64,000 nt of DNA from Escherichia coli (lineage in GTDB: Bacteria; Pseudomonadota; Gammaproteobacteria; Enterobacterales; Enterobacteriaceae). Shown one piece after another: positions 31,622 through 31,804 of the stretch (position 1 is its first letter; each line of letters begins with the position of its first letter). The notes beneath the pieces were generated by a model, which worked only from the letters and a program-made list of their open reading frames with translations, made no database searches and was not told the origin of the DNA. The position numbers and the translations under genes are program-made. The DNA lies in NCBI RefSeq assembly GCF_030384885.1, contig NZ_CP128613.1. One strand, 5' to 3'.

Positions 31622-31804
31622 TCAGAAGAGTTTTGAAAAATTGGACCGCCATCGAGGCCTCGAACCCCGTACCATACAACAATCCTGGTTGTCGTCTGCT
31701 CTTCCTGATGAGCTAATGGCGGTTTGTGATATGAGCCTTACAGCATATTGTCTGTCAGGCTTGAGTGCGATGCGTAAGATACAGAAAAGACCCCACACAA
31801 ACAT
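31622..31804 (-). CDS. small ORF at the position of yahM; doubtful, overlaps the tRNA-like remnant
   Basis: 60-aa ATG ORF in the six-frame track; no recognisable motif. Confidence 0.2.
   Translation of the reverse strand: MFVWGLFCILRIALKPDRQYAVRLISQTAISSSGRADDNQDCCMVRGSRPRWRSNFSKLF
31642..31722 (-). pseudogene. tRNA-like remnant (degenerate cloverleaf with encoded CCA)
   Basis: Reverse strand: 7-bp acceptor stem CCGCCAT / ATGGCGG, U8-A9, D-arm GCTC-ATCAGGAA-GAGC, T-arm CGGGG-TTCGAGG-CCTCG, discriminator T, CCA; anticodon region 4-5 nt too long and non-canonical. Confidence 0.35.

Follow-up and report, generated by a model that had tools for sequence, protein, structure and literature searches.

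A conserved tRNA-like element, probably non-decoding and of phage argN descent, at the yahM locus of Escherichia coli

Escherichia coli K-12 is the best-annotated bacterium, yet the locus between yahN and yahL is annotated there only as the uncharacterised protein gene yahM. Is the conserved object at this locus a reading frame, the scar of an integration event, or an RNA? The question is raised by a stretch of 64,000 nucleotides (nt) of E. coli DNA (contig NZ_CP128613.1 of assembly GCF_030384885.1), referred to here as the window, in which an 81-nt segment of the minus strand (31642-31722) resembles a transfer RNA (tRNA). An initial annotation of the window described this segment as a tRNA remnant left by a former tRNA-targeted integration. 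The analysis presented here points to a different explanation, to which we assign a probability of about 60%: the segment would be a gene carried on the chromosome throughout Escherichia and encoding a tRNA-like RNA that does not decode; it would descend from the argN tRNA of lambdoid and Shiga toxin (Stx) phages. The element is probably a working small RNA that has been domesticated and is matured like a tRNA.

Read from 31722 to 31642, the minus strand is composed of CCGCCAT-TA-GCTC-ATCAGGAA-GAGC-AG-ACGACAA-CCAGGA-TTGTTGT-ATGGTA-CGGGG-TTCGAGG-CCTCG-ATGGCGG-T-CCA, which can be arranged in the arms listed in Table 1. The 81-nt cloverleaf originally proposed is borne out: the acceptor stem, the D and T arms, the discriminator and the encoded CCA are in place, and the minimum free energy (MFE) fold and the drawing made by ARAGORN support them. 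The cloverleaf is both the MFE and the centroid fold of the 81-mer in RNAfold (-29 kcal/mol) and is still predicted when the leader is added to the folded sequence. The z-score of the fold is -1.88, which is weak by itself, and folding alone is unconvincing. ARAGORN reports the element as its sole tRNA in the 64 kb, at the exact coordinates and with the label tRNA-Ser(gga), and made one call in 2.56 Mb of dinucleotide shuffles of the window. The acceptor/T-arm minihelix, the residues that form the elbow between the D and T loops (G18 G19 and UUCGA) and the encoded CCA are all kept. About four extra nucleotides and an odd loop had been noted in the anticodon region, and this is correct: the D and T stems are 28 nt apart, whereas canonical argN has 23 nt at this place and a D loop longer by 1 nt. 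In the MFE fold the extra central bases go into the central hairpin, whose loop lacks U33. ARAGORN draws the centre in another way, with a 5-bp stem, the loop CAGGATT (A33, T37) and either a 5-nt connector or an 11-nt D loop.

Table 1. Features of the tRNA-like element and its surroundings in the window.
Feature	Position	Strand	Description and basis
Sigma-70 promoter	31811..31838	-	TTGACA, 16-nt spacer, CATAAT; 11/12 consensus; promoter scan
5' leader	31723..31804	-	~82 nt, moderately conserved; 33/89 alignment columns vary
Probable relic of the ileZ 3' end and the ileZ-argN spacer	31723..31747	-	17/26 identities; alignment anchored at the 5' end of the element
tRNA-like element, argN family	31642..31722	-	81 nt; sequence, ARAGORN, fold, homology, conservation
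Acceptor stem	31722-31716 / 31652-31646	-	perfect 7 bp; sequence, MFE fold
D arm	31713-31698	-	4-bp stem GCTC/GAGC, G18 G19 in the loop
Central hairpin	31695-31676	-	7-bp stem, 6-nt loop CCAGGA; MFE fold
Linker	31675-31670	-	6 nt
T arm	31669-31653	-	5-bp stem including one G.U pair, loop TTCGAGG
Discriminator	31645	-	T (U)
Encoded CCA	31644-31642	-	
yahN	30763..31395	+	LysE-family exporter, convergent with the element
'yahM' reading frame	31506..31652	-	frame shifted relative to the 81-amino-acid YahM of K-12
yahL	32025..32840	-	low-GC orphan gene, upstream of the promoter of the element

The origin of the element became apparent from its relatives. A megablast search of the yahL-yahN spacer against complete E. 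coli genomes returned one match away from the locus, which has exactly the length of the element and is 87% identical to it. This match is an 81-nt 'tRNA-OTHER' on the plasmid NZ_CP091840, which is located between tRNA-Ile(CAU) and tRNA-Arg(UCU) in a cluster with a DNA methyltransferase gene upstream and a sialate O-acetylesterase gene downstream. In the phage collection, the same cluster is ileZ-argN-argO, found between Q or a methylase gene and stx in lambdoid and Stx phages. By blastn, the element matches the argN slot of phage phiP27 with 84% identity over 89 nt (E = 7e-19) and annotated argN with an E value of 2e-7, and because of this homology the resemblance to a cloverleaf is not a matter of chance. 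On these alignments, the element is a full-length homologue of argN and is closest to the 81-nt non-canonical variants of the argN slot such as that of phiP27.

Canonical argN, represented by Stx2a_WGPS8 (AP012540, with the gene names of GenBank), has the same 7-bp acceptor stem, discriminator T and CCA as the element, the same D stem, a T arm that is 1 nt off (CGGGG-TTCGAGT-CCTCG) and a similar spacer of 7-8 nt ahead of it. Unlike the element, it is 77 nt long, carries the anticodon UCG (ARAGORN) in a normal anticodon arm with a 5-bp stem and a 7-nt loop, and is recognised by the tRNA model of Rfam. The element, in contrast, has an unrelated central domain, escapes this model, is chromosomal and possesses its own promoter. 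It shares the homology of the argN family over the acceptor, D and T arms; it has neither the position of the family, which lies between ileZ and argO after Q or a methylase gene in the late region of the prophage, nor the UCG anticodon in a normal arm. The 80/81-nt forms of the argN slot, which occur in phiP27, mEp460 and many prophages, have the first 33 nt identical to the element, a T arm that is 1 nt off and about 35 nt at the 3' end in common with it, and the 81-nt forms share the central parts GACGACA..AC.AGG..TTGTTG..GT. They differ from it by indels of -5, +1 and +4 in the central domain, which folds into a longer hairpin that ends in a triloop; they lie in phages between ileZ and argO and are variable and often degenerate. 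Neither an Rfam tRNA match nor an ARAGORN call is obtained for the 81-nt phage forms; the copy on NZ_CP091840 owes its 'tRNA-OTHER' label to the Prokaryotic Genome Annotation Pipeline (PGAP), and the copy in phiP27 carries no annotation. A scan of viral contigs yielded 19 distinct sequences with the acceptor stem of the element; the T loop is destroyed in the commonest class, some copies have poly-G expansions, and the chromosomal central domain was found in no viral contig.

A trace of the phage cluster may be present next to the element as well. The 25 nt of the leader that adjoin the element are similar to the 3' end of ileZ and the ileZ-argN spacer (Table 1), with p<=0.001 against shuffles in all four orthologues tested, which suggests that the element was captured from the ileZ-argN tandem of a phage. 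The idea that the whole leader is a decayed ileZ and the 3' flank a decayed argO was rejected: local and full-length global alignments of the rest of the leader with ileZ and of the 3' flank with argO were not significant.

Further members of this phage tRNA lineage were seen along the way. A separate class of 80-81 nt with the same acceptor stem is located between tRNA-Met and tRNA-Gly in viral contigs (loci L017, positions 3175-3255, L025, L037 and L121); its anticodon arm consists of a well-formed stem of 7 bp and the 7-nt loop GUGACAG, and ARAGORN calls it tRNA-His(gtg), so that extended anticodon stems recur in the lineage. Yersinia phage YeP1 (locus L007, 2502-2579) carries a 78-nt relative with the same acceptor design, annotated as tRNA-OTHER (pseudo, TTG) and placed after Q and before tRNA-Met and tRNA-Gly; the lineage thus reaches Yersinia phages. 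In addition, the Rfam small RNAs (sRNAs) STnc100, downstream of the tRNA cluster or stx, and isrC gave strong matches in the phage-derived plasmid segment (L001, 3313-3519 and 4540-4662) and in an Stx2 phage (L004, 4082-4293).

Descent from a tRNA does not by itself settle whether the element still decodes. The Rfam tRNA model (RF00005) gave no match at its gathering threshold (29 bits) in the whole window and none even at E<=10 on the 401-nt slice 31500-31900. No tRNA, transfer-messenger RNA, YrlA or other Rfam family spans the element in the window or in this slice, and the weak matches nearby correspond to a terminator-like hairpin and the promoter. As positive controls, canonical argN scored 53.6 bits and ileZ and argO 62-72 bits with the tRNA model, which misses the element because its central arm is aberrant. 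The initial annotation had made its claim depend on recognition either by a tRNA model or by similarity to a tRNA; the covariance model remained silent, whereas the similarity is strong and leads to a bona fide tRNA, argN. With canonical tRNAs, the element has in common the 7-bp acceptor stem, the D arm with G18 G19, the T-Psi-C-R-A loop and the 3' CCA; it lacks the 5-bp/7-nt anticodon arm with U33, the purine at position 37 and the 1-nt connector between the D and anticodon stems. Judged by this anatomy, normal decoding of codons is very unlikely. A genuine but unusual decoding tRNA, either tRNA-Ser(GGA) as called by ARAGORN or a tRNA with an extended anticodon stem, has in its favour this call, the intact acceptor stem, elbow and CCA, a conservation of tRNA grade, and the phage class with the same acceptor stem that combines a 7-bp anticodon stem with a 7-nt loop. 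We nevertheless hold it to be very improbable, given the silence of the Rfam model at E<=10 and a loop of 6 nt in the MFE fold, or of 7 nt with A33 behind a 5-nt D-to-anticodon connector. A tRNA-Ser needs a long variable arm, which the element does not have, and PGAP/tRNAscan-SE annotates no tRNA at the element in any chromosome inspected.

If the element does not decode, is it conserved at all? When one genome per bacterial species was scanned for an exact 32-mer, a procedure biased to identical copies and blind to diverged orthologues, the element turned up in one metagenome-assembled genome and in E. coli, E. albertii and Escherichia sp. E1V33, and the other 49 nt were identical in each of them. 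The 81-mer is identical in K-12, the GTDB representative of E. coli, E. albertii and Escherichia sp. E1V33. Further orthologous loci were reached via relatives of the YahN protein and thus independently of the 32-mer scan: in seven loci of non-coli Escherichia clades all 81 positions are identical, and an eighth has CCCA instead of CCA. No trace of the element was found at the yahN loci of Citrobacter and Salmonella bongori. Among complete E. coli genomes, 5168 of 5426 carry the element, and 4821 of the 5170 matching records are identical to the window. The commonest deviation is the allele T68C (301 of the 348 non-identical records), which is typical of O157:H7-type strains and converts the G.U pair of the T stem to G-C; the reference or this stem-improving allele accounts for 99% of the copies in E. 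coli. Identity over the 81 nt upstream is limited to 18 E. coli records, and the 81 nt downstream gave megablast matches in only 78 of the 5426 genomes.

In an alignment of ten Escherichia sequences, 2 of the 81 columns of the element vary, compared with 37% of the columns of the leader (33/89; Fisher p = 5e-9); the corresponding counts are 23/33 upstream of the -35 hexamer, 5/28 from -35 to -10 and 10/12 in the 3' flank. The conserved block begins about 50 nt upstream of the promoter and ends at the CCA and a few bases, and within 4-10 nt of the CCA the sequence diverges completely between lineages. The adjacent gene yahN of the window is 83-87% identical to that of the other species, with 61-66% identity at third codon positions (34-39% different); at this third-position rate, an identical 81-mer would be expected by chance with a probability of about 1e-15 per pair. 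The element is thus under strong purifying selection relative to its flanks. Three other causes of its uniformity were considered and rejected. A recent transfer of the block between species does not fit the loci reached via YahN, where promoter and leader are only about 86% identical compared with 100% for the element, and homogenisation or conversion from prophage copies does not fit with the lack of the chromosomal central domain in all viral contigs. Codon constraint fails as well: a 60-codon open reading frame (ORF) that begins at 31804 is soon cut short by a stop codon in E. albertii, several strains have a broken yahM frame, and identity at every position is unlike the pattern left by codon constraint.

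These comparisons bear directly on the possibility that the element is an inert relic, a dead copy of the argN type from an ancient prophage whose conservation is incidental. The failure of the Rfam tRNA model, the visible degeneration of the phage relatives, the absence from about 5% of E. coli genomes, the disruption by IS1 in one strain and the AT-rich, variable surroundings all agree with such a relic. It is hard to reconcile, however, with 0-2 variable sites in 81 nt next to a leader that varies far more and to third positions of yahN that differ at more than a third of sites, with a sole common single-nucleotide polymorphism (SNP) that betters a stem pair, or with a co-conserved promoter close to the consensus. 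The column counts and the yahN comparison strongly disfavour an inert relic, which we regard as improbable. The earlier verdict that the segment is probably non-functional is likewise contradicted by the near-perfect conservation of the 81 nt and the promoter between heavily diverged flanks.

Transcription of the element would start from the promoter listed in Table 1, and a start site is predicted near 31804, which places about 82 nt ahead of the element. The promoter scan found a matching site in the cryptic-clade locus L134 as well. RNAalifold predicts two hairpins in the leader, with only one compensatory pair. A Reg-Seq preprint (10.1101/2025.05.13.653802) calls yahM completely uncharacterised, reports an active yahM promoter, confirms its start site and names IHF as its repressor. 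We infer that this published promoter, yahMp, is the hexamer pair at 31811-31838.

How could such a transcript become a small RNA? RNase P recognises the stack of acceptor stem and T arm, the elbow and a 3' RCCA, and the 3' ends of E. coli tRNAs arise by an endonucleolytic cut in AU-rich trailers, which is followed by exonucleolytic trimming to the CCA. Under these rules, RNase P would remove the 5' leader of the transcript and the AU-rich 3' trailer would be trimmed back to the encoded CCA as in ordinary E. coli tRNAs, leaving a stable RNA of about 81 nt. The RNA would then most likely act in trans rather than in decoding, via a specific partner that reads the tRNA-like body and the central hairpin, and could serve as a decoy, a competitor or a regulator. 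The acquisition would have taken place by capture from the ileZ-argN tandem of a prophage before the Escherichia species split, and the DNA of yahL and 'yahM' would have been inserted around the element afterwards. A more specific version, that a phage tRNA was domesticated into a trans-acting mimic whose body provides maturation and stability and whose invariant central hairpin engages a specific partner, is put forward as a tentative proposal only.

Three post-hoc leads on a partner can be named. Two CAGGA motifs lie in predicted loops of the minus strand about 20 nt apart, one in the D loop (31702-31709, CAGGAAG) and one in the central loop (31683-31688, CAGGAT), and we take this pair to resemble CsrA sites of the CsrB type. 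The element keeps A20, presumably an identity element of arginyl-tRNA synthetase, and has lost C35. Finally, it is constantly paired with the convergent amino-acid exporter gene yahN.

Several points weigh against the proposed small RNA of phage descent. No data on a processed RNA from the element were found in the literature. Its phage relatives look like decaying pseudogenes, and the direction from phage to chromosome is suggested by one 25-nt similarity only, picked after the alignment had been viewed. The absence from about 5% of E. coli genomes indicates that the element is dispensable in some backgrounds, and in E. coli DETEC-S792 an IS1 is inserted in its T loop. As a consequence of invariance there is no covariation, so that the structure depends on one compatible SNP, energy folding and homology. 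The IS1 copy of DETEC-S792 itself (locus L133, 2501-3360) is flanked by the 9-bp target duplication CGGGGTTCG.

The constancy of yahN also invites the view that the element acts in cis. The fold would then be a processing or stabilising module of the RNase P/tRNA type, which sets the 5' end of an antisense transcript driven by the promoter and running into yahN. Alternatively, it would serve on the plus strand as the terminator of yahN, formed by the reverse complement of the acceptor stem followed by TTTTTGAT. A role in cis is plausible given this neighbour: yahN is the only one kept in every lineage that bears the element, and in cryptic clades the element follows the yahN stop by 34-43 nt and no other terminator is predicted there. 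On the plus strand, the complement of the acceptor stem leads into a run of five T in most lineages. Moreover, RNA sequencing of MG1655 lists yahM and yahN as a pair of convergent, overlapping transcripts, a so-called excludon (PMC12288877). However, such a role would constrain the acceptor stem and the T arm rather than all 81 nt including the central loop and the linker. In E. coli, a separate hairpin about 120 nt past the yahN stop probably terminates yahN, and the element is still unchanged there. In the window the T run is broken (TTTGTG), and the stability of the plus-strand fold is unremarkable (z = -0.53). As a yahN terminator, the reverse-complement fold was rejected in its own right, being no more stable than shuffles and not predicted as a terminator, and it is kept only as a part of the cis alternative, which is possible but unlikely as a whole. 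Since the hairpin and linker, which are foreign to tRNAs, are as invariant as the tRNA parts, a trans-acting mimic is favoured over a purely cis role.

Did the element mark the entry point of foreign DNA, as the initial annotation assumed? Low-GC, lineage-specific DNA does lie beside it: the G+C content is 0.32-0.42 over 31600-33100 compared with about 0.5-0.58 in the flanks, and yahL is patchily distributed. According to this explanation, the element would be a tRNA duplicate of the attL/attR type that marks the entry of a yahL island. The adjoining orphan DNA and the fact that the sequence right after the CCA differs per lineage, as at tRNA integration hotspots, are in line with it; yet the inserts found there are small (34-270 nt) and come without recombinase or repeat. 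Against a scar also stand a full-length cloverleaf with its own promoter instead of a 3' fragment, a yahL gene that postdates the element and is placed 5' of the promoter instead of 3' of the tRNA, and homologues that are cargo tRNAs of phages and not a host tRNA. No second copy of the 25-nt 3' part of the element was found in the 64 kb at up to three mismatches, and there are no relevant direct repeats in 30600-33200. Integrase or mobile-element genes are lacking beside the element, the ORFs between yahK and yahN being yahL and yahM only; no host tRNA gene with a 3' half matching the element occurred among the matches in complete E. coli genomes. YahL and YahM had also been considered as phage proteins and were rejected, because neither the PHROG families nor a tblastn search of 50,697 phage records gave a match. 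K-12 does contain tRNA pseudogenes at attachment (att) sites, such as ptwF at CP4-6 and pawZ at CPS-53, which are partial 3' duplicates of host tRNAs generated by integrase recombination at island ends. The element resembles them in being derived from a tRNA and associated with horizontally acquired DNA, and differs in being full length, derived from a phage cargo tRNA, equipped with a promoter and unduplicated. An integration scar is thus highly unlikely, and the reading as a remnant of tRNA-targeted integration is not upheld.

The genes around the element support the impression that it is older than its immediate surroundings. The gene order is prpR, yahO, yahN (+), the 'yahM' region, yahL (-) and yahK. 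yahL and its flanks form about 1.1 kb upstream of the promoter in E. coli; yahL is absent from E1V33, E. albertii, cryptic clades and E. coli DETEC-S792, in all of which the element is found, and the upstream neighbour of the element is yahK in E1V33, yahJ in E. albertii and a gene for an SNF2 helicase in cryptic clades. From this distribution, yahL is a later insertion outside the unit, and the element is the older of the two. In DETEC-S792, the yahL ORF is cleanly absent with both of its flanks kept. In the literature, yahL serves as an E. coli-specific marker (PMC11057252). Downstream, the element is separated from the yahN stop by 34-43 nt in cryptic clades and by 160 nt in E1V33. In E. 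coli the gap, which contains 'yahM', measures about 250 nt, and in E. albertii it is filled by 269 nt of unrelated DNA.

The reading frame of yahM itself overlaps the element by 11 nt, as its annotated ATG (31652-31650) lies within the 3' acceptor strand. The overlap pointed out originally is thus real but small, and the accompanying suspicion of an annotation artefact is backed by frameshifts, stops and replacement of the frame: in the identical strain 2013C-4282, yahM is a pseudogene with a frameshift according to RefSeq, two other E. coli have a stop at codon 12, and E. albertii and Escherichia sp. E1V33 have unrelated sequence at this position. From these sequences, the yahM ORF is probably not a real gene but an artefact of annotation, or a young ORF at best. 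The RefSeq records inspected at the locus contain features for coding sequences only and no RNA feature.

At 31501-31552 on the plus strand, a GC-rich hairpin runs into a stretch of T (GCCCAC...GTGGGC TTTTTT) and is probably the yahN terminator of E. coli. It also gave weak matches to unrelated sRNA families and is crossed by a 46-codon ORF (MKKAHTGESG..., 31412-31552, minus strand). Across the yahL-yahN spacer, the window shows 100% identity to strain 2013C-4282 and about 91% to K-12; the spacer as a whole differs from that of most E. coli at about 9% of positions, and just 17 records reach 99% identity. Near 31870-31880, just upstream of the conserved promoter block, the strain of the window lacks about 45 nt that are present in K-12 (TAAAAAAGCACCAG...GCGGTGTA). 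Elsewhere in the window, Rfam naRNA4, a nucleoid-associated RNA derived from repetitive extragenic palindromes, was found above its gathering score as a tandem (352-429 and 453-530) and as a single copy (27332-27403).

If the conserved object at this locus is an 81-nt tRNA-like RNA with a promoter and not an ORF, a y-gene would have to be re-assigned, and the appearance of 'yahM' in transcriptome studies would be explained although no credible protein corresponds to it. The element would also be a clear case of a phage cargo tRNA that was retained by a host genus in a non-decoding form under constraint of tRNA grade, and it offers a small, directly testable target in K-12. Should the trans-acting mimic prove true, 'yahM' would be a mis-annotated RNA gene in K-12 and the founding example of a new class, host regulatory RNAs of phage-tRNA origin. 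More generally, a tRNA-like sequence beside low-GC DNA is not always an integration scar.

Where does the element stand among known systems? By descent it belongs to the argN lineage; it nevertheless lacks the genomic context and the anticodon arm of this family and escapes the tRNA model. No description of the element was found in the searchable literature, a scope that does not extend to the output of tRNA finders. The closest functional analogy is tRNA-Other of Bacillus cereus, which is described as a pseudo-tRNA located by a genomic island, with a non-translational function that affects the cell wall and antibiotic resistance (PMC3399842). The two have no sequence relationship and occur in different organisms, and the function of tRNA-Other has been tested by experiment, whereas the element of E. 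coli is known from its sequence. Both, however, are predicted pseudo-tRNAs that lie beside variable or foreign DNA, and for both a role as regulatory RNA has been proposed.

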